Assembly (NCBI GenBank): GCA_020632335.1
Contig: JACKFV010000002.1
Span: forward strand, 40,181-72,180
Direction of reading: 5' to 3'
From: Candidatus Saccharimonadota bacterium
Lineage (GTDB): Bacteria; Patescibacteriota; Gracilibacteria; UBA4473
DNA: 32,000 bases
Below are positions 4,381 through 32,000 of the stretch, in pieces. Each line of letters starts with the position of its first letter. Position 1 is the first letter of the stretch. The notes beneath the pieces were generated by a model. That model was not told where the DNA came from. It saw nothing but the letters and a program-made list of their open reading frames with translations, and made no database searches. Both the position numbers and the translations under genes were made by a program.

Positions 4381-4408
4381 GAAAAAATACCTCGTGCAGA
4401 AGGTATTT
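4381..4408 (-). terminator. Rho-independent terminator of the AT-rich islet gene
   Basis: On the minus strand AAATACCT-TCTGCACG-AGGTATTT is followed by a T run, 10 nt after the stop at 4418-4420. Confidence 0.5.
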
Positions 4409-4417
4409 GAAGGAGTT

Positions 4418-4870
4418 TTACAAGTATAGGACTTCTTTCAATAAATAAAAGAAAAATAGATGTATTATGAATCCTATCATCTGCATAGTTACTATGAAGG
4501 AGATCCACCCTGTAACGCCTAATACATCGAATGCAAGCACTAATATCAATAGGAGAGATGAGTATTCAAGTACTAATAGCTTCCAAAAATTTTTACGCAA
4601 TTTTGGTATAGCTTTTATGTATATTAGATAAGAACCAAGTCCTATGATAGCTAATCCCAAATGGATAGTAGTTATTGTAACTGTATGAGGAAATAAAGCC
4701 ATGATATAGAATGTGATAGAGCACACTATAGTAACAAATAATGAGATAACGCCTGCGTAGAGGTATCTAGTGAGCCACTTATGGCTAGTGGTTTCAAAGG
4801 ACCATGCCTCTTTGAAAAGTTCCCATCTCCGTTGTTCTGGAGATAGATTACAATTATCGGATTTTTTCAT
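4418..4870 (-). CDS. Hypothetical multi-pass membrane protein (AT-rich, foreign-looking)
   Basis: 150 aa from ATG 4870 (MKKSDNCNLSPEQRRWELFKEAW...). About four hydrophobic helices. Third codon positions are AT-rich, unlike all neighbouring genes. The longer 167-aa ORF start at 4921 is not preferred. Confidence 0.6.
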   Translation of the reverse strand: MKKSDNCNLSPEQRRWELFKEAWSFETTSHKWLTRYLYAGVISLFVTIVCSITFYIMALFPHTVTITTIHLGLAIIGLGSYLIYIKAIPKLRKNFWKLLVLEYSSLLLILVLAFDVLGVTGWISFIVTMQMIGFIIHLFFFYLLKEVLYL

Positions 4871-4948
4871 AATATATATAATTCTTGAAATGATGAATAA
4901 ATAAAAGAAATGACGCGCCACAACTGCACTTGTGGAGGAGTCACCGGT

Positions 4949-4977
4949 ACTGTACTACAGATGCAGTATTTTGTCAA
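4949..4977 (-). promoter_or_regulatory. Candidate sigma70-type promoter for the islet gene
   Basis: Minus strand TTGACA (4977-4972), 17 nt, TACAGT (4954-4949). This predicts a leader of about 70 nt. Confidence 0.35.
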
Positions 4978-5035: not shown

Positions 5036-5995
5036 ATGCAGAGCCTGCTTGCTGCCATCATTGGCTTCTCGCCCGTGCTACAGGGGTTGATAGCCGCGGT
5101 GTGCGTAGCGGGGCTGTGGTGGGGCGCGGAGCTGGTGATAGACGGGGCGCGGTCACTCGCGCGGCGGCTGGGCATCTCCGAACTCATCATTGGGCTGACG
5201 GTAGTGAGTGTGGGGAGTAGCTTCCCGGAGATATTCGTGAACGTGCAGGCAGGGCTCTCTGGGCTCTCTCCGCTGGGGGTGGGGAATGTAGTGGGTAGCT
5301 GTCTGGTGCAGATCAGCGTGATACTGGGGATCTGCGTACTGGTGGGGGGGCCGCTGACCGAAACCCGCCCCAGCATACGCCGTGACGGGGGCATGGTGGT
5401 GGGCTCCATCGCGCTGCTGTACCTGCTGGGGATGGACGGGCACATCTCGGTAGGGGAGGCTATCGGCATGGTGTCCCTCTACGGAGCGTATATCCTCTAC
5501 CTCACGCGCGCACCGCACGAGAAAGCCCACCACTACGTCACTCCTGAGCAGAGCGTGTGGGAGGCGCTGGCGAAGTTCGCTCTGGGGGCGGTGGTGGTGT
5601 GGGTAAGTAGCGATACGCTCATCCACATAGGGCTGCACGCCGGGGAGGTACTGGGGATCAGCCCGAGCGTGATCGGGATCATGAGTGGCATCGGCACCAG
5701 TGTGCCCGAGCTGGCGGTGAGTCTCATCGCCCTGCTACGCCGGAGTAACGGCATCTCCATCGGGAACCTCTTGGGGTCTAACATCACCGATCCGCTCTTC
5801 AGCCTGCCCATGGGTGCCCTCTTGGCCGGGGGCTACAGTGTTGACTCCCTACTGCTGGAGCGTGCTATACCCGCTTGGGGAGCCATCAGCCTGCTGGTGC
5901 TGCTGGTGTTTTACTTCCGTGGGAGGGTAGGCCGGCCGGTAGCGGTACTGCTGATAGCGCTCTACATCGGGAGTTTCTGGTGGTTTTTACAGTAG
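5036..5995 (+). CDS. Ca2+/cation antiporter, CaCA (YrbG-like) family
   Basis: 319 aa with about 10 hydrophobic segments and two alpha-repeat motifs: GSSFPEIF in the N-terminal half and GTSVPELAVS in the C-terminal half. Confidence 0.85.
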   Translation: MQSLLAAIIGFSPVLQGLIAAVCVAGLWWGAELVIDGARSLARRLGISELIIGLTVVSVGSSFPEIFVNVQAGLSGLSPLGVGNVVGSCLVQISVILGICVLVGGPLTETRPSIRRDGGMVVGSIALLYLLGMDGHISVGEAIGMVSLYGAYILYLTRAPHEKAHHYVTPEQSVWEALAKFALGAVVVWVSSDTLIHIGLHAGEVLGISPSVIGIMSGIGTSVPELAVSLIALLRRSNGISIGNLLGSNITDPLFSLPMGALLAGGYSVDSLLLERAIPAWGAISLLVLLVFYFRGRVGRPVAVLLIALYIGSFWWFLQ

Positions 5996-7202: not shown

Positions 7203-8816
7203 CTAACGAGGGCTCTTGTCCGTCGCGGCAATCAGCCCGGCAAAGAGCGGGTGCGGCGTGAACGGACTGCTGATAAACTCCGGGTGGAACTGCGACGCGA
7301 TCATATACGGGTGGCCCTCTACCTCCACGATCTCGGGCAGCTTATGTGACGGGTCCCAGCCGCTCACCCGTAGGCCGGCCGCCTCCAGCGCAGGGGTATA
7401 GCGCGTGTTGATCTCATAGCGGTGGCGGTGCCGCTCGGTTATCTGCTCCTTGCCATACAGCCGGTGTGCCAGCGTGCCCGGGGTAATGAGGCAGTCGTAG
7501 GCTCCTAGGCGCATGGTGCCGCCCTTATCAGTGATGGTGCGCTGCTCGGGGATGAAGTGCACGATGTGGTGTTGGCTTTTGCCCTCCTCATCGAATTCCT
7601 CGCTGGTGGCGTCTGTCATACCCAGTACGTTGCGCGCGTACTCTATAGCCAGTATCTGTGACCCCAGGCACAGCCCCAGGTAGGGCTTTTTTCGCTCTCG
7701 GCAGTACTGCGCCACGCGGATCTTCCCCTCTATCCCACGAATGCCAAAGCCCCCCGGCACCACGATGCAGTCCATGCTCGCTAGCTTCTGGCGCTCTAGG
7801 TGGTCGTCCATCTCTATCTTCTCGGTGTCTATCCAGGTGATGTGCGGCTCCAAGTGCGCGTTATAGGCGGCTGACTCTAGGGCCTCTATGACGGATTTAT
7901 ACGCGTCGTCTAGCCCCACGTACTTGCCCGCCAAGCCGATGCTGACGCTCCCCACCGTGTGCTGGCGCCGCTCATACCCGGCCTTCCAGTGGTGCATCTG
8001 GGGCGCTTTGCCGGTGATGCCAAACTTCTCGAGAATTTTCTCCCCCACCTTCTGCGCGTCAAAATGCAGCGGCACGGCGTAGATGCTCTCTACCGTCGGT
8101 GCGGGGATGACACACTGCGGCTCGATATCGGCAAAGAGTGAGATCTTCTCCAGCAGCGATTCCGGCACGGGTTTATCTGCCCGGGCAAAGAGGAGATCTG
8201 CTCGCAGGCCACGACGATTCAGCTCCCGCACCGCCAGCTGCATGGGCTTGGTCTTGAGCTCCCCAGCGCCCTGCAGGTAGGGTACCAGCCCCAGCATGGC
8301 CACCCGCACCTGGTCATGGTACTGGGTTTTCATCCGCCGCACGGCCTCAAGGAAGGGGTCGGCCTCGATATCGCCCACCGTGCCGCCTAGCTCTATGAGC
8401 ATCACCTCGGCGTCGTAGGCCTCGGCCAGGCCCTCTATACGCTGCTGGATGGCGTCTGTAATGTGTGGCACCACCTGTATCGTGCCCCCCAGGTAGCTGC
8501 CTTCTCGCTCGCCCTGCAGCACCTGCTGGTAGATCTTCCCCGCGCTCACACTGCAGTCCCGCTGCATAGAGAGGCCCGTGAACCGCTCATAATACCCCAG
8601 GTCGAGGTCGGTCTCCGCGCCATCGTTGAGTACAAAGACCTCCCCGTGCTGGTAGGGGCTCATGGTCCCCGGGTCGATATTGAGGTAGGGGTCCAGCTTC
8701 ATGATGCCGATACGCACCCCCGCGCTGCGCAGTATGGTGGCGATGGAGGCCGCGCAGATGCCCTTTCCCAGGCTACTACAAACCCCCCCCACCACAAAAA
8801 GATAACGGCGATCCAT
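7203..8816 (-). CDS. pyrG: CTP synthase
   Basis: 537 aa. The N-terminus reads YLFVVGGVCSSLGKGI...LDPYLNIDPGTMSPYQHGEVFV. The C-terminal glutamine amidotransferase domain carries GLCLGSQ and HRHRYE. Confidence 0.97.
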   Translation of the reverse strand: MDRRYLFVVGGVCSSLGKGICAASIATILRSAGVRIGIMKLDPYLNIDPGTMSPYQHGEVFVLNDGAETDLDLGYYERFTGLSMQRDCSVSAGKIYQQVLQGEREGSYLGGTIQVVPHITDAIQQRIEGLAEAYDAEVMLIELGGTVGDIEADPFLEAVRRMKTQYHDQVRVAMLGLVPYLQGAGELKTKPMQLAVRELNRRGLRADLLFARADKPVPESLLEKISLFADIEPQCVIPAPTVESIYAVPLHFDAQKVGEKILEKFGITGKAPQMHHWKAGYERRQHTVGSVSIGLAGKYVGLDDAYKSVIEALESAAYNAHLEPHITWIDTEKIEMDDHLERQKLASMDCIVVPGGFGIRGIEGKIRVAQYCRERKKPYLGLCLGSQILAIEYARNVLGMTDATSEEFDEEGKSQHHIVHFIPEQRTITDKGGTMRLGAYDCLITPGTLAHRLYGKEQITERHRHRYEINTRYTPALEAAGLRVSGWDPSHKLPEIVEVEGHPYMIASQFHPEFISSPFTPHPLFAGLIAATDKSPR

Positions 8817-8822
8817 GCGCTT

Positions 8823-8851
8823 AGTGTAGATTCCTCCCTGAGGGGTGTCAA
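8823..8851 (-). promoter_or_regulatory. pyrG promoter, leaderless configuration
   Basis: Minus strand TTGACA (8851-8846), 17 nt, TACACT (8828-8823), 6 nt (AAGCGC), ATG 8816. Confidence 0.6.
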
Positions 8852-8895
8852 GTAGCGGGTGTAGAGAGAAATCAAAGAACCTTCATATACAGGGG

Positions 8896-8923
8896 TTGGC
8901 AGCCAGCGCGAGGGGAGTAGGGT
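8896..8923 (+). promoter_or_regulatory. Promoter of the cysteine desulfurase gene, leaderless configuration
   Basis: TTGGCA (8896-8901), 16 nt, TAGGGT (8918-8923), 6 nt (AGGGGT), ATG 8930. Confidence 0.55.
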
Positions 8924-8929
8924 AGGGGT

Positions 8930-9973
8930 ATGCAGTCGCTGTACTTCGACGCCGCCGCTACCACCCCCCTCGCACCAGAGGCCGCCGACGCGATGGACGC
9001 CCTGCGCGATACCTGGGGGAATAGTGCCTCGCAGCACCACCTGGGGAGGGAGTCCAGAGCTGTGGTAGAGCGCTCGCTCACCCGCATAGCCGAGGTACTA
9101 GGGGTGTCACCGCATCAGCTGACTCCTACGCATGGCGGCACCCACGGGAACCAGCAGGTGCTCCAGGTGGCTGCGCGGCGGTGGGGGTGGGCGCACCTTT
9201 ATGCCAGCACGGTGGAGCACAGCAGCGTTGTTGACCTCCTCCTGCCCGAGAATCGCTTTGACCCTATGACCTTTGCGGGTACCCGCCCGGAGGCCAGGCT
9301 GCTGGCTCTCATGCAGGTGAATAACGAGACCGGTGCCATCTATGATATCGCAGCGCTGCGGCGCTCCTTCCCGGACGCGGTGCTCCTCAGCGACTGGGTA
9401 CAGGCCGTGCACCGGGTGCCCCACAGCTGGCTGGCGGAGGTAGATATAGCGACCTTCAGCGCGCATAAATTCGGTGGACCTAAGGGCATGGGTGTGCTCT
9501 ATACCGCGGTACCAGAGGCCTGGCCGGAGCTCACCGCGCAGCACCACACCGTAGACCACGTGCGGCTGGCGGGCATGGCGGCGGCGCTCCTGCGTGACCC
9601 CAAGGCCGAGCATCTCCAGCGCCTCACGCTCCACCTCCAGCAACTGCTGCAGGCCTCTGTACCCGGGCTGATTATCCACCGCCATGGCATTGCTCAGGCT
9701 AGTGGTATCCTCAGCGTGAGTGTGCCAGGGGTGCGTGGAGCGCAGATAATGCGCCTACTGGACACCGAAGAGGCCCTCTGTGTGAGCACCGGCGCGGCCT
9801 GCACGCGGAATATTTTTGCTCCCTCACGCGTGCTCCAGGCCATCACCAGCGACACGCAGCACCACTACCCCGTGCGACTGAGCCTGCATACGGGCTTGAC
9901 GCTGGAGGATACCGAACACTTGGCCGCCGCCTTTGCCAGCATTGTGGGGCAGCTGCGGGCACAAGTGCGGTGA
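8930..9973 (+). CDS. Class V aminotransferase / cysteine desulfurase (NifS/IscS-like, short form)
   Basis: 347 aa. It has the PLP-lysine motif SAHKFGGPKGMGVLY and the catalytic-Cys motif STGAACT. It is the only CDS in the window ending in TGA. Confidence 0.8.
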   Translation: MQSLYFDAAATTPLAPEAADAMDALRDTWGNSASQHHLGRESRAVVERSLTRIAEVLGVSPHQLTPTHGGTHGNQQVLQVAARRWGWAHLYASTVEHSSVVDLLLPENRFDPMTFAGTRPEARLLALMQVNNETGAIYDIAALRRSFPDAVLLSDWVQAVHRVPHSWLAEVDIATFSAHKFGGPKGMGVLYTAVPEAWPELTAQHHTVDHVRLAGMAAALLRDPKAEHLQRLTLHLQQLLQASVPGLIIHRHGIAQASGILSVSVPGVRGAQIMRLLDTEEALCVSTGAACTRNIFAPSRVLQAITSDTQHHYPVRLSLHTGLTLEDTEHLAAAFASIVGQLRAQVR

Positions 9974-9978
9974 TTTTA

Positions 9979-10006
9979 TTGACACCCGGGCGAGGATTTC
10001 TACCCT
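9979..10006 (+). promoter_or_regulatory. Candidate promoter for the tRNA-Gly/tRNA-Tyr pair
   Basis: TTGACA (9979-9984), 16 nt, TACCCT (10001-10006). The tRNA starts about 20 nt after the predicted TSS. Confidence 0.45.
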
Positions 10007-10032
10007 GTGGGGGGCTTCTTTTATAGCGCGGC

Positions 10033-10107
10033 GCACGTGTCGTATAATGGCTATTACCACGGCCTTCCAAGCCGTTGACGCGAGTTCGATTCTCGCCACG
10101 TGCTCCA
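10033..10107 (+). tRNA. tRNA-Gly (anticodon UCC), CCA encoded
   Basis: Folded by hand. Acceptor GCACGTG/CACGTGC. Anticodon stem ACGGC/GCCGT with loop CTTCCAA. 4-nt variable loop. T arm GCGAG-TTCGATT-CTCGC. Discriminator T followed by CCA. Confidence 0.9.
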
Positions 10108-10117
10108 TTTCTCCCGT

Positions 10118-10202
10118 GGAGGGATAGTGAAGCGGTCAAACACAACAGACTGTAAATCTGTCGGCTCAGCCTTCGCAGGTTCGAATCCTGCTCCCTCCAC
10201 CA
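10118..10202 (+). tRNA. tRNA-Tyr (anticodon GUA), long variable arm, CCA encoded
   Basis: Acceptor GGAGGGA/TCCCTCC. Anticodon stem ACAGA/TCTGT with loop CTGTAAA. Long variable arm CGGCTCAGCCTTCGC. T arm GCAGG-TTCGAAT-CCTGC. ACCA end. Confidence 0.9.
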
Positions 10203-10210
10203 GTATGTTT

Positions 10211-11617
10211 CTACTCATAGGTGATGGCCTCTGTTTTTTCCGTGTACCGCCAGCGGTGCAATAGCCGCTCGTACCCCGGGCTGAAGAGACACCACCCCCA
10301 CAGCACTATGAGGAGCCCGAGCACGCTATACCCCACCGTGGGGGAGACTACCCGTAGCGGGATGCTGGAGGTGAGCTGCGCCAGGTGCAGCGTGAGCTCG
10401 AGAAGACTCCAGACCCCCGCACCCAGCAGGTAGCCCAGCCATGGGGTCACTGGCCCGAGCAGCAGTAGCACTACCCCCAGAAGCATCACCAGCGGGACAA
10501 CTGGCTCGATGAGGACATTGGCGATGAGCCCCGCCGGGTACCACACCCCAAACTGCAGCAGCTGCAGCGGCAGAGTGCTGAGGGTCGCGATGAGACTCAC
10601 CCCCAGGAGATCCCACAGCAGCCGAGACGCCCCTCGCAGTGCCACTCCCTCCCACAGCGGCAGCAGGGTAATAATGCCCAGCGTGGCCAGCACACTCAGC
10701 TGGAAGCCAATATCAAAGAGCAGTATCCTCGGCGTCACCGCGGCCATGAGCAGCACCGTCAGCAGCAGCACGTTGGGCATGTCCGCCATTCGCCCCTGGC
10801 TGATACCCCAGCCCGCCACCAGCCCCATGATGCTACTGCGCACCACTGGCGCGTCGGCCCCCGTCACCAGGCAGTAGAAGAGCACCACCCCCACACTACT
10901 CCAGAAGACCACCCGCCGCCCCAACCGTCGGAACAGGAGCGACACAAAGACCATCAGCACGGTGATGTTATAGCCGCTCACCACCAAGATGTGCTGGAGG
11001 GTACTGTGACGAAAAAGCGCCTCCGTGCGTGGTGGGAGGTCCTCCCGTATGCCCAGCAATATACCGCTGAGCAGCTGGCGGTGCGGCACGGGTAGCAGCC
11101 TTTTTAACCGAGATTCACTCCACTGTCGCAGGCTATAGGCCCACTGCAGGAGCGGATTTCCCTCAGCTGGTGCCACGAGCGCTGCCTCCTCCGCCCGCAC
11201 AATATGTGTGATGCCATACCGCAGCAGGTAGCCCCGGTAGTCAAAACTCCCCAGCACGGTGGGCAGCTGCAGCTTACCGGTTATCTCCAGGCGGTCGCCA
11301 TAGCCCCAGCTATTGTGCCTCTGGTCCCGCAGGAGCACCCGGGCGCGGGTCTGGCTAGCCGGTGGAGGGATATGCAGCCAGTCGTAGTACCAGTGGGGGC
11401 TGCTATAGTGGGTGAGCTCTAGCGTAGCCTGACGATGAGAGAGCCGTTGCTCAGGGAAGCTCACCACCTGCCCCAGGAGGGTCACCGGCTGCGCAAGCGG
11501 CAGCACTGGCACTGGTGGCGCTGGGCGCAGACTCCAGAGGGCCAGCAGCGCAATACCCATGCACAATAAAACCCGGAGTATGCGCTCCGGCGTAGCATAG
11601 CGGGCACTAGAGGTCAT
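10211..11617 (-). CDS. comEC: ComEC/Rec2-family DNA uptake channel (N-terminal OB/DUF4131 plus competence domain, no C-terminal metallo-beta-lactamase domain)
   Basis: 468 aa. The N-terminal region has one TM helix followed by a soluble segment, then a polytopic membrane core with ...ILVVSGYNITVL... typical of the ComEC competence domain. The protein ends right after the membrane domain. Confidence 0.8.
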   Translation of the reverse strand: MTSSARYATPERILRVLLCMGIALLALWSLRPAPPVPVLPLAQPVTLLGQVVSFPEQRLSHRQATLELTHYSSPHWYYDWLHIPPPASQTRARVLLRDQRHNSWGYGDRLEITGKLQLPTVLGSFDYRGYLLRYGITHIVRAEEAALVAPAEGNPLLQWAYSLRQWSESRLKRLLPVPHRQLLSGILLGIREDLPPRTEALFRHSTLQHILVVSGYNITVLMVFVSLLFRRLGRRVVFWSSVGVVLFYCLVTGADAPVVRSSIMGLVAGWGISQGRMADMPNVLLLTVLLMAAVTPRILLFDIGFQLSVLATLGIITLLPLWEGVALRGASRLLWDLLGVSLIATLSTLPLQLLQFGVWYPAGLIANVLIEPVVPLVMLLGVVLLLLGPVTPWLGYLLGAGVWSLLELTLHLAQLTSSIPLRVVSPTVGYSVLGLLIVLWGWCLFSPGYERLLHRWRYTEKTEAITYE

Positions 11618-11625
11618 CGTGCGGG

Positions 11626-12120
11626 TTAAGCAGCTTCAGTAACCGGAGCCTCTGCATCTGTGTCTGCAGCTGCGTCCTCAACGATTTCCGCAGCAGTATC
11701 TTCCGCTTCCGCTACAGGTGCTGCTGGCTCTGTGATTGCTGCCTTTTCCACGGTTATGTGCTCCAGTGTAAAGGGCACTTCCTGCATCCGCAGTGATTTC
11801 CCGCTCAGGTCTCGCACGTAGTTCAGCTTGGCTCGGCGTACCTTGTGCGCGCGCTTCACGTCTATCTGCACGATGCTGGGGGAGTGCAGCGGAAACACCT
11901 TCTCGACCCCCACACCACTGGCGATATTTCGCACGGTGAAGGTCGCGTTGATCCCGTCGTTACTATTTTTCACGCCGATCACCATCCCCTTGAAGATCTG
12001 GATCCGCTCTTTCTTCCCCTCTGTGATGCGCTGGTGCACCTCCACACGGTACCCGGGGCGCAGCGCGGGGACGCTGTCTTTACAATAGGCGTTAGAAAAT
12101 TGGCGTACGCGGGCGTCCAT
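11626..12120 (-). CDS. rplS: 50S ribosomal protein L19 with an acidic Ala/Glu-rich C-terminal tail
   Basis: From ATG 12120: MDARVRQFSNAYCKDSVPALRPGYRVEVHQRITEGKKERIQIFKGMVIG...TVRNIASGVGVEKVFPLHSP...VRRAKLNYVR. N-terminal spacing matches E. coli L19 (16 aa before VP.(F/L)RPG). The ORF-track start at 12174 is a TTG that I read as the -35 box. Confidence 0.9.
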   Translation of the reverse strand: MDARVRQFSNAYCKDSVPALRPGYRVEVHQRITEGKKERIQIFKGMVIGVKNSNDGINATFTVRNIASGVGVEKVFPLHSPSIVQIDVKRAHKVRRAKLNYVRDLSGKSLRMQEVPFTLEHITVEKAAITEPAAPVAEAEDTAAEIVEDAAADTDAEAPVTEAA

Positions 12121-12146
12121 GAAAGAGGGGGCAATTACACTCTTGC

Positions 12147-12174
12147 AATCTAACATAGTTGGCAGGGGTGGCAA
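12147..12174 (-). promoter_or_regulatory. Candidate rplS-comEC promoter
   Basis: Minus strand TTGCCA (12174-12169), 16 nt, TAGATT (12152-12147). The predicted leader is about 20 nt. Confidence 0.4.
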
Positions 12175-12329
12175 ATTTTTTTACGACTTCTTCATCTGGG
12201 AGTTCATGAGGTCTTCACGCATCAGCCGTTCAGCCCGTACCCCTTTGGTATATCTGGGGGATTTCCCTCACGACTTTCTTCATACATATGTACATATTAG
12301 AGGACAGAGAGTAGCGGGGCGTCCCGAGT

Positions 12330-12357
12330 TTGACAGCGGTGCTTTCTGCCCTACCAT
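12330..12357 (+). promoter_or_regulatory. Candidate fusA promoter
   Basis: TTGACA (12330-12335), 16 nt, TACCAT (12352-12357). The predicted leader before ATG 12379 is about 15 nt, with no SD motif. Confidence 0.5.
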
Positions 12358-12378
12358 CGCCGTGTAATTCTTTACGCT

Positions 12379-14460
12379 ATGACCAAGCACTATCCGCTCA
12401 ACCGGGTTCGTAACATCGGTATTATTGCGCATATCGACGCGGGAAAAACCACCGTGTCTGAGCGCATCCTCTTCTACACCGGGGTGAACCACAAGATAGG
12501 CGAAGTGCACGAGGGCCAGGCCACCATGGACTGGATGGAGCAAGAGCAGGAGCGGGGGATCACCATTACCTCTGCAGCCACCACGTGCTTCTGGAATGAC
12601 TGCCAGATCAACATCATCGACACGCCCGGGCACGTGGACTTCACCGTAGAGGTAGAGCGTAGCCTGCGGGTGCTGGATGGTGCGGTGGCGATCTTCGACG
12701 GGGTGAGTGGCGTAGAGCCCCAGTCCGAGACGGTATGGCGCCAGGCCGACCGCTATGGCGTGCCGCGCATGTGCTTTATCAATAAGCTGGACCGTACCGG
12801 GGCTAGCTTCATGCGCAGCTACCAGAGTATCCTCGACCGCCTGTGTCGCGACGCCCTGCCCATCCAGCTGCCCATCGGCGAGGAAAGTGCCTTCAAAGGA
12901 CTGGTGGATCTGGTGGGGAACTGCGCCTATATCTACCATGATGACTTGGGGCAGGAGATCGAGAAGATTGCCATCCCGGCCGATATGACAGATCTGGCCG
13001 CGGAGTGGCGAGAGAAACTGGTGGAGAATGTGGCGGGCACCGACGAAGTGCTGATGCATAAGTACCTGGAGGAGGGCTCGCTGACCGAAGCAGAGCTCAA
13101 AGAGGGCATCCGTAAAGCCACGCTCGCGGGGGATCTGGTGCCAGTACTCACGGGTACGGCGCTCAAGAACAAAGGGGTGCAACTGCTGCTGGACGCCGTA
13201 ACGGCCTACCTCCCCAGCCCTCTGGACATCCCCCCTGCAGAAGGCAAAGACCCCGAGAACCCCGAGGTTACCCTGGTGCGCAAACCAGACGATAAAGAGC
13301 CCCTGGCAGCCCTGGCGTTCAAGGTAGCGACTGACCCTTATGTAGGGCGGCTGACCTTTGTGCGGGTCTACAGCGGAGTGATGGAGAGCGGCAGCTACGT
13401 CTATAACCCTACCAGTGGGCAAAAGGAGCGCATCGGGCGACTGCTGCAGATGCACGCTAATAAGCGGGAGGAGATCAGCGTGATCCCCGCGGGGCAGATA
13501 GGCGCGGTAGTGGGGCTGAAGAGCACCAAGACCGGCGAGACGCTCTGCGACGATAAACAGCCCATTGTGCTGGAGAGTATGGAATTCCCCGAGCCGGTGA
13601 TTTCTATCTCCGTTGAGCCCAAGAGTAAGGCTGATCAGGAGAAAATGAGCCTGGCGCTGAGCAAGCTGGCGGAGGAGGACCCTACCTTCAAAGTGCATAC
13701 CGACGAAGAAACCAACCAGACCATCATCAGCGGTATGGGTGAGCTGCACCTGGATATCATTGTGGACCGTATGAAGCGGGAATTCAAGGTGGAGTGTAAT
13801 ATCGGTCAGCCGCAGGTGGCCTACCGCGAGACGATTCAGGAGGAGGTGGAGTCTAAGTACACGCACAAGAAACAGACCGGTGGACGCGGGCAGTTCGGGG
13901 AGGTGGTGTGTAAAATCCGCCCTGGTAAGCCGGGCCATGGCTTTGTCTTCATCAATAGTATCAAGGGGGCATCTATCCCGAACGAGTACATCCCCGGGTG
14001 TGAGAAGGGCTTTGCAGAGGCCATGACGCGTGGTATCCGCGCGGGTTACCCGGTGGTAGACGTGGAGGTCGAGCTCATCGACGGGAGCTACCATGACGTG
14101 GATTCGAGCGAGTTGGCATTCAAGATTGCCGCGGCACAGGCCTTCAAGGAGGGAGCCGTACGCGCTAAACCGGTCATCCTCGAGCCGATGATGAATGTAG
14201 AGATTACCACGCCAGAGGACTACATGGGGGATGTCATGGGGAATGTGAGCGGTAAGCGCGGGATCATCCAGGAGAGTGGTGACCGTGGCCTGGCCAAGTA
14301 CATCAAGGCGCAGATACCGCTAGCGAACATGTTTGGTTACGCCACTGACCTCCGGAGTATGACCCAGGGCCGCGCCAACTACTCTATGGAATTTGCCAAC
14401 TACGTGAAAGCGCCGAATACCGTAGCAGATCAGATCATCGCTGAGCGCTCCGGAAAGTAG
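12379..14460 (+). CDS. fusA: Translation elongation factor G
   Basis: 693 aa. G-domain motifs [14 protein letters not shown] and NKLD, with full-length EF-G architecture. Confidence 0.97.
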
Positions 14461-14562: not shown

Positions 14563-14638
14563 GGGCGAGTAGCTCAGAGGTTAGAGCAGGGCGCTCATAA
14601 CGCCTTGGCCGGGGGTTCAATTCCCTCCTCGCCCACCA
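14563..14638 (+). tRNA. tRNA with anticodon CAU, elongator type (Met, or Ile2 if lysidinylated), CCA encoded
   Basis: Acceptor GGGCGAG/CTCGCCC with the G1-C72 pair present, so it is not an initiator. D arm GCTC-AGAGGTTA-GAGC. Anticodon stem GGGCG/CGCCT with loop CTCATAA. T arm GGGGG-TTCAATT-CCCTC. ACCA end. Confidence 0.9.
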
Positions 14639-14673
14639 TTTCATGTCATGACAAACAACTTCCCTCATTTAAC

Positions 14674-15369
14674 ATGAAAGAAGATAATAAAAAAATATTT
14701 GGTGAGTACAGAAAAGAGGCTCTTGATTTTTGGAGGAAAGAAACGGGAAGAGCAGACGAAAAAGAATGTGAAGAGTCTTCAATTTACGAAGGTGCGTACG
14801 AATGTCGATGGCAAGGCGAGTTACCCGAACCAAAACATAACAGCTTTTTTTGCTCAATGGGTAATTTTGCAAGCAATGTAGATGATTTGTTGACTGATTC
14901 AAGGAGAGATGAAGTAGACATTCAAAAAGCTTTGAATGATCCTGAAAATCATGATTGTGGAGCTTTGTACCGATTTTACACGCGTATTTTACTGGTTGCT
15001 GAAACAATCGTTGAAGATTTTGAGATGGTTTTACAAAAAGACCTTCCCAAGTCAGCAAAAAATTTGAAGAAATTTGTAAATGCTGTCATCAAGCATAGTT
15101 GTAAAAATGGACGAGGGATACACTTTTACAAAAAAAACCACCACCTACCTCTTTTGATCGAACATTGGGGATTTGGTGATGATGATTCTGAAATGAAAGA
15201 ATTGTCAGTTGATACGTTAGGCAAGGATGATTACAATTGCCTACGATTGCCAAGTCTTTACTCGATAGTTGAAAGTCTTCTTGATTGTTATAAAAAGCTG
15301 GATGAGAAACTTAAAGATGATGATTTTGCGAAAAATTTTCACTATACCTATACAAAAACATGGGATTAG
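14674..15369 (+). CDS. Hypothetical soluble protein, orphan (231 aa)
   Basis: Long open frame in AT-rich DNA, where stops are frequent, starting MKEDNKKIFGEYRKEALDFWRKETGR... The upstream part of the 290-aa track ORF runs through the tRNA and is discarded. I recognise no motif. Confidence 0.65.
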   Translation: MKEDNKKIFGEYRKEALDFWRKETGRADEKECEESSIYEGAYECRWQGELPEPKHNSFFCSMGNFASNVDDLLTDSRRDEVDIQKALNDPENHDCGALYRFYTRILLVAETIVEDFEMVLQKDLPKSAKNLKKFVNAVIKHSCKNGRGIHFYKKNHHLPLLIEHWGFGDDDSEMKELSVDTLGKDDYNCLRLPSLYSIVESLLDCYKKLDEKLKDDDFAKNFHYTYTKTWD

Positions 15370-15574
15370 TAAGGGGTAGTGGCAAATTGCCTCCCTCCTA
15401 CCCGTGACAATCTGTCACGACCTGATGTAAATATTGCACCTGAGACGAGTTTGGATTTCCCCATTTTTGTACTACACTTTTAATGGTCATGACAAACAAG
15501 TCATCGTACCGTTTGGCTGGTAGTTCAATTGCTGTCTTGTCTAGCCCACCATTGATTATCATGACAAAGAACTC
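15370..15574 (+). repeat. Inter-ORF module A
   Basis: 5' block TAAGGGGTAGTGGCAAATTGCCTCC (15370-15394). Hairpin CGTGACAATCTGTCACG (15403-15419). Extra junction copy GTCATGACAAACAA (15486-15499). 3' block GGTAGTTCAATTGCTGTCTTGTCTAGCCCACCATTGATTATCATGACAAAGAAC (15519-15572). Alignable to module B at both ends. Confidence 0.75.
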
Positions 15575-15838
15575 ATGGAAAATCTAGAACAAGAAATACT
15601 CAGAATTAAAGAAAGAAATCAACAGAAAGAATGGGATAAGGCATGGGAAACTTCTCTTTTTCGAAAAGTTGTAATAGCTATTCTCACTTACTTGGTAATA
15701 GTACTTTTCTTCTATTTTGCTGAACTTCCTTCACCATTTATAAATGCAGTAGTTCCCACTCTAGGATTCGTACTTAGTACCCTCTCCTTACCTCTATTTA
15801 AAAGGGTTTGGCTCAGATACTTTCATCAAGACAAGTAA
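15575..15838 (+). CDS. Hypothetical small two-TM membrane protein (87 aa)
   Basis: MENLEQEILRIKERNQQKEWDKAWETS is followed by two hydrophobic helices and a basic tail. The ATG lies 23 nt after the pseudo-CCA end of module A. Confidence 0.6.
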   Translation: MENLEQEILRIKERNQQKEWDKAWETSLFRKVVIAILTYLVIVLFFYFAELPSPFINAVVPTLGFVLSTLSLPLFKRVWLRYFHQDK

Positions 15839-16016
15839 GGGTAGTGGCAAATTGCCTCCACCCCTGTTCGTGACAATTTGTCACAGTCTGAAATACCTCA
15901 ATCTCAAGAGGGGGACAATTTGTCCCCCTCCTTTTCTATTCGTGACACTCCGTCCGTCTGGTTGAGGGGTCAATTGCTGTCTTCCCCATGCCCACCATTG
16001 CATGTTATGACACATA
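15836..16016 (+). repeat. Inter-ORF module B
   Basis: 5' block TAAGGGTAGTGGCAAATTGCCTCC (15836-15859), beginning at the ORF stop codon. Hairpin GTGACAATTTGTCAC (15870-15884). Hairpin GGGGGACAATTTGTCCCCC (15910-15928). 3' block GAGGGGTCAATTGCTGTCTTCCCCATGCCCACCATTGCATGTTATGACACATAA (15964-16017). Confidence 0.75.
15910..15937 (+). terminator. Possible rho-independent terminator inside module B
   Basis: An 8-bp stem GGGGGACA/TGTCCCCC with loop ATT, followed by TCCTTTTCT. Confidence 0.45.
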
Positions 16017-16179
16017 ATGATGAATAGAGAAGTAGAAGAAAGTACTTCTGGAAACAATTCTTTCAATAGACTATTGCAAAGAGGAATTACACCATCATTA
16101 TGATTCTTTCAAAGCCATTTTTGCAGTATTTTAATAGAAGTCTACAACTATTGCATTGTGAAGTATCATCCCTTGATCC

Positions 16180-16207
16180 TTGCACTCGGGGCGCTTTTCA
16201 GTAGAGA
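16180..16207 (+). promoter_or_regulatory. Elp3 promoter, leaderless configuration
   Basis: TTGCAC (16180-16185), 16 nt, TAGAGA (16202-16207), 6 nt (GGCACT), ATG 16214. Confidence 0.55.
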
Positions 16208-16213
16208 GGCACT

Positions 16214-17998
16214 ATGAGCCTGCGCATCGCCAAGGACGCCTCTGGGCAGTATGTACACACGCCCTCTATGGAGGCGAAAAAGCACAAGATTGCCAGCTTT
16301 GGCACGCGTCAGCGGGTGGAGAATACCGCGGTGGTGGAGCGGTTCTTGCGCGAACTGGTGGCGGATATCCCCCCGGATAAGAAGACGCTCGAGCAGCGCA
16401 AGTACACTTTTGCGGCGGCGGAGCAGCTCCCACTCATCGAGAACCGGGACCTCATCGCCATCGCGCAGCAGTGGGAGCAGCAGGGGAATCCTGTACCAGA
16501 GACGCTCCTCCAACTGCTGCGGAAGCGCTCCGTGCGGACCATCAGCGGGGTCAGCCCCATTGGCATCCTCACCAAGCCCTACCCCTGCCCCGGCAAGTGC
16601 GTCTACTGCCCGACGGAAGACCGCATGCCCAAAAGCTACATGAGCAACCAGCCCGCCGCGGCACGCGCCCTGCGGAATAAATTTCACCCCTATGACCAGG
16701 TCATCAACCGGCTGCACGCGCTGGAGGACAGCGGCCACCCCGTCAGCAAGCTGGAGGTGATCGTCATGGGCGGCACCTGGAGCTTCCTCCCCAAGAAATA
16801 CCAGAGCTGGTACTGCAAGAAAATCTACGACGCGGCCAATGATGACGGGCGCGTACACGCCACGCACAAGAGTCTCTCGGCCAGCCAGCACGCTAATGAG
16901 ACCGCTGCACGCAAGATCATCGGGCTGACGCTGGAGACGCGCCCGGATTTCATCACCCCCAAGGAGCTCTACCGTATGCGCCAGTACGGCTGCACGAGGA
17001 TAGAGATCGGGGTACAGACGCTGGACGACACGGTGCAAACCCTCACCAAACGGGGGCACAAGAAGGCCGAGGTAGTACGCGCTATGCGGCTGATGAAGGA
17101 CTACGGGTTCAAGGTCTGCTGGCACCTGATGCCCGGGCTACCCGGCTCTACGCCCGAGAAGGACCTGCAGTGGCTGCGTGAGGTATTCGAGGACCCCGAC
17201 TGCCGCCCGGACTTTGTGAAGATCTACCCCTGTGTGGTGCTGGAGACCGCTGAGCTGAAGCAGTGGTGGCAAGAGGGCCGCTACCAGCCCTACACCGACG
17301 AGCAGCTCATCAAGCTGCTGCTGCAGTTCAAGACCTTTGTACCGCCCTGGACGCGCGTCATGCGGCTGATGCGCGACATCCCCGTGACCAACATCCTCGA
17401 CGGGGCCAAGTTCTCTAACCTTCGGCAGATACTGCGGTCTCAGCCCGAGAAGCTGCGCGAGATAGTAGGGGAGCAGTGGTACACCGCCTACCAGGCCGAG
17501 CGAGCCGAAGAGTCGGGGAGCTGGCCCTGCCGGTGCATCCGTTGTAGAGAGATTGGCTTCCAGAGCTTTGCCACCGCGGCAGAGGTGCCCGTGCCGGTGC
17601 TCAAACGCCGCAGCTATAGCGCCAGTGGGGGCACGGAGGAGTTTCTCAGCTTTGAGAGCGAGGACGAGCAGCACCTCTTTGCCCTGCTACGGCTACGGCG
17701 CCCCAGTGGGAAGAGCCCACTACTACAGTGGGAGGGCATACTGGGGGAGGGCTGCGCGCTCATCCGTGAGGTGCACAGCTATGGGAGTGAGATCGCCGTG
17801 GGAGACAGTGCCGGAGTGGGGCAGCACCGCGGACTGGGCACACGACTCATGCACGAAGCCGAGCGCTTAGCGCGGGAGGAGTGGGGTTGCCACACCATGA
17901 CGGTCATCGCGGGGGTGGGCACGCGGGACTACTACCGCAGGTTTGGCTATACCCTCCAGCATACGTATATGGTCAAGCGTCTACTCCAGAGCCACTAG
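16214..17998 (+). CDS. elp3: Elp3-type radical-SAM/GNAT enzyme (tRNA U34 carboxymethylation family)
   Basis: 594 aa. RTISGVSPIGILTKPYPCPGKCVYCP matches the Elp3 N-terminal block with the CxxxCxxC iron-sulfur motif. A TIM-like radical-SAM core follows (IEIGVQTLDD). The C-terminal GNAT domain carries the acetyl-CoA motif QHRGLGTRLMHEAERLA. Confidence 0.85.
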   Translation: MSLRIAKDASGQYVHTPSMEAKKHKIASFGTRQRVENTAVVERFLRELVADIPPDKKTLEQRKYTFAAAEQLPLIENRDLIAIAQQWEQQGNPVPETLLQLLRKRSVRTISGVSPIGILTKPYPCPGKCVYCPTEDRMPKSYMSNQPAAARALRNKFHPYDQVINRLHALEDSGHPVSKLEVIVMGGTWSFLPKKYQSWYCKKIYDAANDDGRVHATHKSLSASQHANETAARKIIGLTLETRPDFITPKELYRMRQYGCTRIEIGVQTLDDTVQTLTKRGHKKAEVVRAMRLMKDYGFKVCWHLMPGLPGSTPEKDLQWLREVFEDPDCRPDFVKIYPCVVLETAELKQWWQEGRYQPYTDEQLIKLLLQFKTFVPPWTRVMRLMRDIPVTNILDGAKFSNLRQILRSQPEKLREIVGEQWYTAYQAERAEESGSWPCRCIRCREIGFQSFATAAEVPVPVLKRRSYSASGGTEEFLSFESEDEQHLFALLRLRRPSGKSPLLQWEGILGEGCALIREVHSYGSEIAVGDSAGVGQHRGLGTRLMHEAERLAREEWGCHTMTVIAGVGTRDYYRRFGYTLQHTYMVKRLLQSH

Positions 17999-31366: not shown

Positions 31367-31611
31367 GTACGAGATGGATGAGAGTTTCGCTCCTACAGCA
31401 GTACCGATGCCTTGCAAAAACACCCTATACTCCTAGAAATATAGCGAAGGTGGCAGTCTACAACGAATCTAGGTGGAACTCCACAATACGAGAACTTGAA
31501 CGATGGGGTGAGGTTTTACCCTGTGCTCTTGAACGAGCACTAGAACCCGAGGAATACAGAGCTTTAAGTGCTTGTTAAGACTACCCATTACACTATTGAA
31601 CACATAAAATC

Positions 31612-31635
31612 AAAAGTCCAAAAATTGGACTTTTT
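31612..31635. terminator. AT-rich hairpin, possible bidirectional terminator
   Basis: AAAAGTCCA-AAAAT-TGGACTTTT followed by T. The stem is weak because it is AU-rich. Confidence 0.3.
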
Positions 31636-31658
31636 CGGTGAAAATACTAGATTGGATA

Positions 31659-31807
31659 TTGCCTAACAAATTCTATTTTTTAACGCTGATCTACTTTTAT
31701 GAGTAGCTGATTGAAAACATCACGTTCGCACGATAAGTGGAAAATCTGGAGCCTCTTCTTCAGATACACTTTCTTGCGAGCTCAGCTTAATGGAATTTGT
31801 TAGGCAA
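31659..31807. repeat. 19-bp inverted repeat enclosing 111 nt
   Basis: TTGCCTAACAAATTCTATT (31659-31677) pairs with AATGGAATTTGTTAGGCAA (31789-31807): 18 Watson-Crick pairs plus one G-U. Confidence 0.85.
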
Positions 31808-31874
31808 CTGTCTAGGAGGCTCCAACTTTTTGAAGTTGGTAAATCCCTCAGACGGATTTCCTAACTTTTTTGCT

Positions 31875-32000
31875 ATGAAAACTCTTCGCATCATCATCGG
31901 TCTCCTGCTGATTCTTATCTTTCTCGGTACTGCCTTTCGAGAATTCCCCTACAGCTTACCCTTTGGGGGTCTGGGGATTTTGTTTGGACTTTTGCTCGTG
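31875..32000 (+). CDS. Hypothetical membrane protein, N-terminal fragment (continues past the window)
   Basis: ATG 31875 opens 42 stop-free codons to the window edge: MKTLRIIIGLLLILIFLGTAFREFPYSLPFGGLGILFGLLLV. This is a hydrophobic, signal/TM-like sequence. Confidence 0.45.
   Translation, partial: MKTLRIIIGLLLILIFLGTAFREFPYSLPFGGLGILFGLLLV

Follow-up and report, generated by a model that had tools for sequence, protein, structure and literature searches.

A tandem array of single-gene units behind a tRNA-Met gene in a Patescibacteria genome, probably built by small integrative elements that lack an integrase

Introduction

How can a series of single-gene units come to stand directly behind an intact tRNA gene when no integrase is encoded with them? 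This question is raised by a 1.5-kb AT-rich segment behind a tRNA-Met(CAT) gene (positions 14563-14638, plus strand) in a 32,000-nucleotide stretch of a Candidatus Saccharimonadota genome (NCBI assembly GCA_020632335.1, contig JACKFV010000002.1, positions 40,181 to 72,180), hereafter called the window. A first-pass annotation, made from the letters of the window and without database searches, had described the segment as an array of one-gene units anchored on tRNA-Met and bounded by degenerate copies of the tRNA 3' end. This description held, and the same junction sequence was found at other tRNA-Met genes. We consider it somewhat probable that integrase-less mini integrative elements have accreted here as an array at the 3' terminus of the tRNA(CAU) gene, with a recombinase acting in trans. 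The Patescibacteria, or candidate phyla radiation (CPR), have small genomes with few recognised mobile elements, and how they acquire defence and accessory genes is poorly understood.

Results

The tRNA gene was detected by both ARAGORN and Rfam (70.7 bits against the Rfam tRNA model) and is intact. We read it as an elongator-type tRNA, Met or Ile2, because the acceptor stem (GGGCGAG/CTCGCCC, with G1-C72 paired), the anticodon stem and the T stem all pair in the sequence; its acceptor and T stems are GC-rich and host-like. GC content is about 0.56-0.62 in fusA (12379-14460), falls to 0.35-0.42 from the first base past the tRNA, and recovers at about 16200, rising above 0.6 in an Elp3-like gene (16214-17998). 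Within the segment lie the three open reading frames (ORFs) listed by the first-pass annotation, namely ORF1 (14674-15369), ORF2 (15575-15838) and ORF3 (16017-16103), and its account of the tRNA and of the composition flip was likewise accurate, as were the coordinates that it gave for its junction strings. An independent Logan assembly (L053, SRR12358675) is 100% identical to the window over 14579-16189, and therefore the arrangement is not an assembly artefact.

Two junction copies, A behind ORF1 and B behind ORF2, resemble the end of the tRNA gene beyond what chance provides. The tRNA 3' end with 22 nt of flank aligned locally to copy A at a score of 26 and to copy B at 22.5, the highest score among 1000 dinucleotide shuffles of the island being 16, and blastn within the window gave E values of 7.6e-6 and 4e-4, respectively. 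A 14-mer, TCAATTGCTGTCTT, is present at copies A and B only. Perfect matches to the 13-mer TCATGAYAAASAA number three across the window, against 0.02 expected, and all lie within the island: behind the tRNA, before junction A and after junction A; the second of these is the perfect repeat at 15486-15499 that had already been pointed out. What the annotation had overlooked is homology over the full length of the intergenic regions 15370-15574 and 15839-16016, which extends from each stop codon up to the following start codon (blastn E 1e-13; local score 48.5 against a shuffle maximum of 17.5). A perfect 21-mer, GGGTAGTGGCAAATTGCCTCC, stands immediately behind the stop codons of both ORF1 and ORF2, and TGACA/TGTCA half-sites occur in the intergenic regions at five times expectation (10 versus 2.1), a number reached by 0 of 2000 shuffles. 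A hairpin 17-mer, GGTAGTGGCAAWTTGCC, which lies right after the stop codons (15374-15394 and 15839-15859), also matched 11 IMG/VR contigs (L056-L066), of which 7 represent one Aaphi23-like Pasteurellaceae prophage family with a C run and a T run behind the match, as in a terminator. A phage link through this 17-mer was judged coincidental, the match count being close to a rough chance estimate.

The junction, here called J, is 43 nt long. It mimics the variable-loop and T-arm portion of tRNA-Met, contains a non-tRNA stretch, TTCAAT-NN-CTGTCTT, and ends in CCCACCA. These last seven nucleotides of the tRNA gene (14632-14638) form the sole block exactly common to all junctions. J was found in at least 12 loci besides the window: an exact-pattern scan of 241 million metagenome records returned 27 loci, 8 of them with true junctions, and a protein search added more. 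CTGTCTT is conserved across all copies and canonical in all but two variants. The consensus of the low-GC copies is CCGTTTGG-N7-GGTTCAATATCTGTCTTG-N5-CCCACCA, and 13 of 15 of them have the 15-mer TTCAATATCTGTCTT without any change, the window having TTCAATTGCTGTCTT and GTCAATTGCTGTCTT. All copies are in direct orientation. Across genomes, J copies agree with one another at 36-42 of 43 positions, compared with 27-31 of 43 between a J and its own tRNA; likewise, the J_A of the window agrees with the J of locus L018 at 34 of 43 positions and with the window tRNA at 30, and its 5' end is CCGTTTGG, as in foreign copies, where the local tRNA has CGCCTTGG. Because the copies match each other across genomes better than they match their own tRNA, the junctions are a family carried by the elements and not products of local decay, which agrees with the earlier view that copies A and B are kin to each other and were not copied independently from the local tRNA. 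The 8-nt insertion noted in both by the annotation is thus the hallmark of a conserved site and not of random decay.

Same-strand J copies stand behind tRNA-Met at three further loci (L014, L018 and L023) and locus L047 begins in a tRNA 3' end, with one to five units at each. L014 (L006 extended), found through a homologue of ORF2, lies in a 1.93-Mb low-GC contig; there, tRNA-Met(CAT) at 4743-4818 is followed over 8 kb by five same-strand J copies (at 5506, 7169, 9937, which is a variant, 10320 and 12734), after which core genes resume. Many of its units have genes on the opposite strand, and two hold AbiL-like defence pairs (7744-9608 and 10533-12445), composed of an AbiLi-type AAA ATPase and a small partner, one of the partners being RloB/AbiLii-like. 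In L018 a single gene of the metallo-beta-lactamase fold lies between tRNA-Met and J, and in L023 a 5.8-kb island with a helix-turn-helix (HTH) regulator, an Eco57I/N6 methylase and a LexA-like peptidase occupies this place. In L047 and its siblings the contig edge falls in the tRNA 3' end (..GGGCCCACCA) and two units follow. A 775-aa N6 methylase adjoins J in L042, and HNH and RhuM proteins were also found among the cargo, which is island-typical. Arrays with AbiL-like pairs (L014) or restriction-modification methylases (L023, L042) act as small defence islands.

The unit that contains ORF2 was found in three arrays with different neighbours: the window (15552-15997), L014 (about 9981-10362) and L047 (2726-2344, reversed). 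The repeat thus recurs elsewhere with variation at the level of single units, for which the first-pass annotation had suggested looking. In a three-way alignment, the left-hand junction differs by array and similarity begins right behind CCCACCA (TTGATTATCATGACAAAGAAC in the window, TTTATATCATGATAAAGAAT in L014 and TTTATGTCATGACAAACAAC in L047); between L014 and L047 it continues through the gene and the right arm and ends right after the next CCCACCAT (CCCCACCAT). In the three arrays that have a complete tRNA and this left end, the acceptor and T stems are host-specific (3' acceptor strands CTCGCCC, CTGGCCC and CAGGCCC) and pair with the 5' half of the tRNA, and the DNA just past CCA is the same foreign left end; therefore the join lies in the last ~8 nt of the tRNA gene. 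We place the putative crossover at CCCACCA because it is the sole block identical in every tRNA and junction, a placement drawn from these boundaries and not from an observed recombination event.

Such sharp boundaries bear on the idea that J and the tRNA end serve merely as portable homology, units being exchanged by transformation and RecA-type recombination after DNA uptake with no site-specific enzyme. The absence of a recombinase from every array fits this idea, as does a ComEC competence gene 3 kb upstream of the array (10211-11617), and the 5' and 3' variable parts of J are combined differently from copy to copy, as crossovers in the invariant core would give. We nevertheless consider it distinctly unlikely. 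The identity between J and the tRNA is short, consisting in the window of interrupted blocks of at most 8 nt (TTGG, GTTCAATT and GCCCACCATT). Moreover, the border between host and foreign DNA is sharp at the tRNA end in every array, and the ORF2 units of L014 and L047 diverge exactly past CCCACCAT.

Among the 26 larger ORFs of the window that were scanned, none had a recombinase domain, in agreement with the annotation's remark that it holds no integrase; nor was one detected in L014, L023, L018, L034, L041, L042, L045 and L047, arrays and flanks included. Because no examined array encodes a recombinase, the enzyme must act in trans if the units are mobile elements; it would most likely be a tyrosine recombinase supplied by the host or by a larger helper element, so that the units would behave like cis-mobilizable elements. 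By this account the segment comprises two tandem mini integrative elements and a probable stump of a third, acquired from low-GC donors. The elements follow one plan: a short left end (T, a few bases and TCATGAYAAASAA), then a single gene directed away from the tRNA, a right arm of ~140-200 nt with many GACA/TGTC palindromes, and the 43-nt J. A circular unit would recombine through the CCCACCA end of its own J with the identical terminal bases of the tRNA gene, namely the acceptor end together with the discriminator and CCA. The tRNA would be left intact, the newest unit would adjoin it and older units would be pushed outward; units whose gene runs in the direction of the tRNA could be transcribed from the tRNA promoter. 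This account is favoured by the repeats and their conservation across genomes, the recurrent position behind tRNA-Met, the sharply bounded ORF2 unit that several arrays share, the lack of integrase domains and the island-type cargo. It is also favoured by L044, in which a right arm 88% identical to that of the window leads to a tRNA-like 3' end with a hairpin terminator behind it, as in a classical attR, the right-hand attachment site of an integrated element.

Several findings weigh against this explanation. Neither a recombinase nor a circular or empty-site junction came to light. The sole independent assembly of the locus is identical to the window, and so gives no unit-level variation and no sign of present mobility in this organism. 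About 13 distinct J-bearing loci were recovered, and with 8 true junctions among the 27 pattern matches the family may be narrow; only one low-GC locus, L023, has a taxon, Patescibacteria group bacterium (the NCBI name of protein P0125). Several L014 units are without the TCATGAYAAASAA left end. In the J of L044, a tRNA-like 3' half (GGTTCAAATCCAGCCAG..) stands where J_A has CTGTCTT; therefore exchange within J, near the T-loop, has also occurred. Finally, related loci hold half-junctions (CCGTTTGG..GGTTCAA without CCCACCA) and a repeated 170-190-nt non-coding module that contains them, which look like the debris of old tRNA islands and hint at breakpoints in the T-loop as well.

Part of this evidence would suit an array of dead debris, in which integrase-bearing islands or prophages inserted serially at tRNA-Met and each decayed to one gene and an attR-like fragment, leaving units that are not mobile. 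Serial integration followed by decay is well documented, and tycheposon islands with fragmented integrases and scattered partial tRNAs are an example; the attR-like form of L044, the half-junctions with their module, the unvarying second assembly and the greater degeneracy of J_B relative to J_A are all in keeping with it. Independent deletions, however, would not yield a 0.4-kb ORF2 unit with the same boundaries and different neighbours in three arrays. The near-invariance of the non-tRNA stretch of J across genomes implies that the sequence is under constraint, and in none of five complete arrays was an integrase fragment seen. We therefore regard decay of ordinary islands as unlikely.

The non-coding module itself lies behind the tRNA or J in several arrays (L014 7217-7385, 10368-10535 and 5900-6050; L047 4068-3890 and 2352-2140, reversed; L023 3353-3530). 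It includes two half-junctions, a terminator-like GGGCTTTTTT and an GGGTTCAAG/GGGTTCGAA box, has no Rfam match, and is adjoined by genes that are mostly on the opposite strand.

On what level is J conserved? When J and its flanks were folded as single-stranded DNA, the result was no better than in shuffled sequences (z 0.10, -0.51, -0.06 and -0.50), covariation was not seen by eye at the positions flanking the conserved core in 17 copies, and Rfam matched the tRNA alone and not J (window, L014, L018, L044 and L047). Because fold signal, covariation and Rfam match are all lacking, J is neither an attC-type hairpin nor a structured RNA. These results also make it most improbable that the junctions act at the RNA level, as processing or punctuation signals (RNase P/Z-type) or as stabilisers in a polycistron transcribed from the tRNA promoter and duplicated together with genes. 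Such a role would suit junctions that lie between co-oriented ORFs directly downstream of a tRNA, keep a T-loop-like and ACCA sequence, and are not separated from the tRNA by a terminator, none having been found between the tRNA and ORF1. J is, on the other hand, without a 5' acceptor strand, and many L014 units have genes on the opposite strand.

The minus-strand frames through J are open and read ..GGxxKTDIEPxTKR... The possibility that J is the coding part of a split gene was rejected, as the copies share no similarity in the N-termini that precede GG, disorder is predicted for the J-encoded part and there is no recombinase domain. From the unrelated N-termini, the predicted disorder and the invariance of the 15-mer, which has no synonymous variation, it follows that the constraint on J acts on DNA. 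In the window, a 54-aa ORF (MIINGGLDKTAIELPAKR...) runs antisense through J_A (15398-15562, minus strand), and the matching frame in J_B is open for only 15 codons before a stop. Among 1.84 billion representatives, a search returned one true relative of this ORF, P0136 from L044, besides two repeat proteins that were spurious matches; most likely the ORF is no gene and simply follows from the conservation of the DNA.

Just inside the right end of many low-GC islands, a small acidic helical protein (..KEYLDQxEE..PFxYSxLTKxLFxxVYLxFYYW..VEEF..) is encoded, reading away from J (L023 8919-9164, minus strand; L014 12527-12700, minus strand; proteins P0124-P0135). AlphaFold predicts a confident helical hairpin at residues 47-80 and a disordered J-encoded N-terminus. 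Given its fixed place beside J, the protein is a candidate for a part in recombination or in the control of recombination.

In the window, unit 1 (14639-15551, plus strand, 913 nt) consists of the left-end motif, ORF1, a right arm and J_A, and is bounded by CCCACCA at 14632-14638 and 15545-15551. The left-end motif TCATGACAAACAA (14646-14658, plus strand) contains the palindrome TGTCATGACA and is also found directly behind tRNA-Met in L014 and L018. The right arm of unit 1 (IG_A, 15370-15508, plus strand) forms hairpins at 15372-15396 and 15403-15419 (GTGACAATCTGTCAC; fold z -3.9), includes an internal copy of TCATGACAAACAA (15487-15499, plus strand), and is 88% identical over 15398-15528 to the right arm of L044, a 944-nt contig in which both hairpin types are present. 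J_A (CCGTTTGGCTGGTAGTTCAATTGCTGTCTTGTCTAGCCCACCA, 15509-15551, plus strand) is the element-borne mimic of the tRNA 3' end (nhmmer E 1.2e-10 against the J profile). Unit 2 (15552-15997, plus strand, 446 nt) has the left-end motif at 15559-15571, ORF2, a right arm and J_B. Its right arm (IG_B, 15839-15953, plus strand) is homologous to IG_A and forms hairpins at 15839-15863, 15870-15884 and 15908-15930 (fold z -5.5), the last of which is followed by a T run and was terminator-like in a terminator scan. J_B (CCGTCTGGTTGAGGGGTCAATTGCTGTCTTCCCCATGCCCACCA, 15954-15997, plus strand) scored E 1.7e-8 in nhmmer. The remaining 15998-16165 (plus strand, GC ~0.35) begins with a degenerate left-end motif, TTATGACACATAA (16004-16016), and is probably the stump of a third unit; no closing junction was found in it, ACTATTGCAT at 16147-16156 only weakly echoing ACCATTGCAT, and the 28-codon ORF3 within the stump had no support as a gene.

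The additional copy at 15486-15499 (GTCATGACAAACAA), which lies 9 nt upstream of J_A, had been taken as a possible mark of an empty unit. It turned out to be a fixed part of the right arm, since there are equivalents in L044, which has GTTATGAGAAACAAGTCATC at the same place, and in one subfamily of low-GC right arms, which has CTGACAAAGAAT ~10 nt before J. The direct repetition of this motif on both sides of J suggests accessory or arm-type protein-binding sites as a candidate function.

ORF1 encodes 231 aa (NCBI: hypothetical protein H6771_03200 [Candidatus Peribacteria bacterium], a name that places the host in the CPR) and is orphan cargo. It had no match in Pfam, PADLOC, NCBIfam or PDB, and its one weak homologue, P0002 (28% identity), stands in an unrelated context. 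A single-sequence AlphaFold model was unusable (mean predicted local distance difference test score, pLDDT, 38), and ORF1 is unrelated to the first L014 cassette.

ORF2 encodes 87 aa with a long central hydrophobic stretch that, read by eye, suggests two membrane helices. Over 1500 proteins of 83-102 aa make up its family, with 60-76% identity, and they come from Patescibacteria (among them Pacebacteria, Nomurabacteria, Komeilibacteria and Liptonbacteria) and from Woesearchaeota archaea, a level of identity across two domains that is striking for an uncharacterised gene, and it corresponds to no Pfam, NCBIfam or PADLOC family. ORF2 was rejected as a marker of arrays: homologues in L007 (4001-4264), L010 (4001-4270), L054 (8001-8267) and L055 (573-842) are without J, and therefore the family is mostly an ordinary resident gene. 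In L010, which has archaeal-type genes, the homologue lies directly behind an ArsR-type HTH gene. In L007 (Woesearchaeota), a tRNA-like gene with an apparent intron past the anticodon region lies at ~2873-2993, 1 kb upstream of the homologue, and was not called by ARAGORN.

The Elp3-like protein beyond the island is full-length (594 aa), with Radical_SAM and GNAT acetyltransferase domains, and is encoded here by a bacterium. Its relatives at 62-67% identity come from Gracilibacteria/Peribacteria metagenome-assembled genomes (L001-L004); a tRNA-Met upstream of Elp3 was absent in all four of these loci, which leaves no locus comparison. A second AT-rich islet (4400-4950, GC ~0.37 versus 0.63) lies between an amidase gene and a Na/Ca exchanger gene. 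Its one ORF, on the minus strand at 4418-4870, encodes an orphan protein of 150 aa that looks hydrophobic by eye, and the islet has no tRNA, J or left-end motif. A third AT-rich stretch (31500-32000, GC ~0.41) follows a mechanosensitive-channel-like gene and is cut by the edge of the window.

Discussion

The first-pass annotation knew of no described system with this architecture, which was too strong a statement, since tandem tRNA and transfer-messenger RNA (tmRNA) integrations with partial-tDNA repeats and integrase-less remnants are known, and so are cis-mobilizable elements. Tandem integrations at ssrA, the tmRNA gene, have left partial-tDNA repeats in the Dehalococcoides ssrA islands (PMC3146451), and tycheposon islands of streamlined Prochlorococcus genomes lie next to tRNA genes, with remnants, scattered partial tRNAs and adaptive or defensive cargo (10.1101/2020.12.28.424599). 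Like the Islander-type and ssrA islands, the present arrays have intact tDNA at one end, direct-repeat 3' parts between inserts, foreign composition and defence-type cargo, and the newer inserts would adjoin the tDNA. The window, L014, L018 and L023 each combine an intact tRNA with a same-strand fragment of its 3' part at the far end; L047 does so with a tRNA end that lies at the contig edge. Classical islands, in contrast, encode their own tyrosine integrase and extend over several kb or longer, whereas here the units measure 0.45-0.9 kb (in relatives up to 5.8 kb) and none of the island ORFs scanned matched Phage_integrase or another recombinase. The repeat also appears to differ from the exact displaced tRNA end of classical islands and to be a conserved mimic: J shares with the tRNA exactly only CCCACCA(T) and part of the T-loop, and its middle is the conserved non-tRNA stretch. 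The J of L044 is more tRNA-like. Islander accepts tandem arrays only if every member has an integrase, and it lists 4 arrays of at least 3 members among 3919 islands (PMC4383910); island finders that need an integrase per island would miss arrays such as these.

The likeness to tycheposons is in the tRNA-adjacent position, the remnants, the scattered partial tRNAs and the adaptive or defensive cargo. Tycheposons are, however, defined by their own tyrosine recombinase and replication module, and no such recombinase with a replication or PICI-like (phage-inducible chromosomal island) module was found in the arrays scanned; unlike tycheposons, the arrays here have a single-gene unit that recurs intact in several of them. 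Cis-mobilizable elements (CIMEs) are flanked by attachment (att) sites, are without recombination and transfer genes, form tandems with elements related to them and rely on an integrase in trans. Units 1 and 2 are similarly bounded by tRNA or J sites and contain a single non-recombinase ORF each. CIMEs are, on the other hand, recognised by their kinship to an integrative and conjugative or integrative and mobilizable element with the cognate integrase, whereas no integrase-bearing relative was found here in viral, phage and plasmid collections, which yielded no true match to J, the left-end motif, the right arm, the small protein or the islands; the present units are also much smaller and more numerous.

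The annotation had placed the array closer to integrons or to pdif-type modules than to a classical tRNA island. As in integrons, there is a fixed insertion point, the units are mostly promoterless single genes that each end in their own site, expression from an upstream promoter is possible, and one single-gene cassette, the ORF2 unit, recurs with its boundaries at the sites in different arrays (window, L014 and L047). Kinship with integrons was not borne out. No IntI-type recombinase was found among the 26 larger window ORFs or in the L014, L023, L018 and L047 arrays; J has no hairpin fold of the attC type (z ~0) and no GTTRRRY, and is flanked by direct and not inverted repeats; the anchor is a tRNA gene instead of attI; and what is conserved in attC is a hairpin, whereas in J it is the sequence. 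The array works by an integron-like logic without being a member of the integron family. For the Xer/dif systems (pdif modules and integrative mobile elements exploiting Xer, IMEX), repeat searches and folds gave no dif-like 11-6-11 palindrome at J, and the J copies are all direct, unlike the 28-bp dif-like sites of pdif modules, which alternate in orientation.

A further resemblance is to integrases of the type found in the Sulfolobus spindle-shaped viruses (SSV), in that an ORF runs antisense through a tRNA-like att site, and what lies downstream of att comes to stand at the insert's attR end. SSV1 Int has ..GFEPGT.., comparable to ..KTDIEPxTKR.. in the J frame. The J-frame ORFs are, however, only 45-90 aa long, match no Pfam or NCBIfam family and are modelled as a small helical hairpin, unlike an SSV-type integrase, so that the resemblance is only formal. 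What is unusual in the present arrays is that the units are small, that none of the complete arrays seen has any recombinase and that the elements bring a conserved tRNA mimic with them. Nothing specific on such arrays in Patescibacteria was found in full-text literature, though an earlier description is still possible.

In a bolder form of the favoured explanation, which we hold to be possible and rather unlikely, the arrays would be a dedicated integron-like gene-capture platform of the Patescibacteria. CCCACCA of tRNA-Met would then be the analogue of attI, and J with the flanking TGAYAAASAA repeats that of attC; a recombinase encoded elsewhere would shuffle single-gene cassettes, defence genes included, between distant hosts whose GC contents range from 0.30 to 0.62, and the tRNA promoter would drive the cassettes.

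If the units are dead debris, the locus is an ordinary decayed tRNA island and carries little weight. If they are integrative elements, the 43-nt site and the universal tRNA end could become a tool for targeted insertion as soon as the enzyme has been identified. An integrase-less cassette site at tRNA-Met that is shared across base compositions would then represent a specific route of gene capture in the Patescibacteria.

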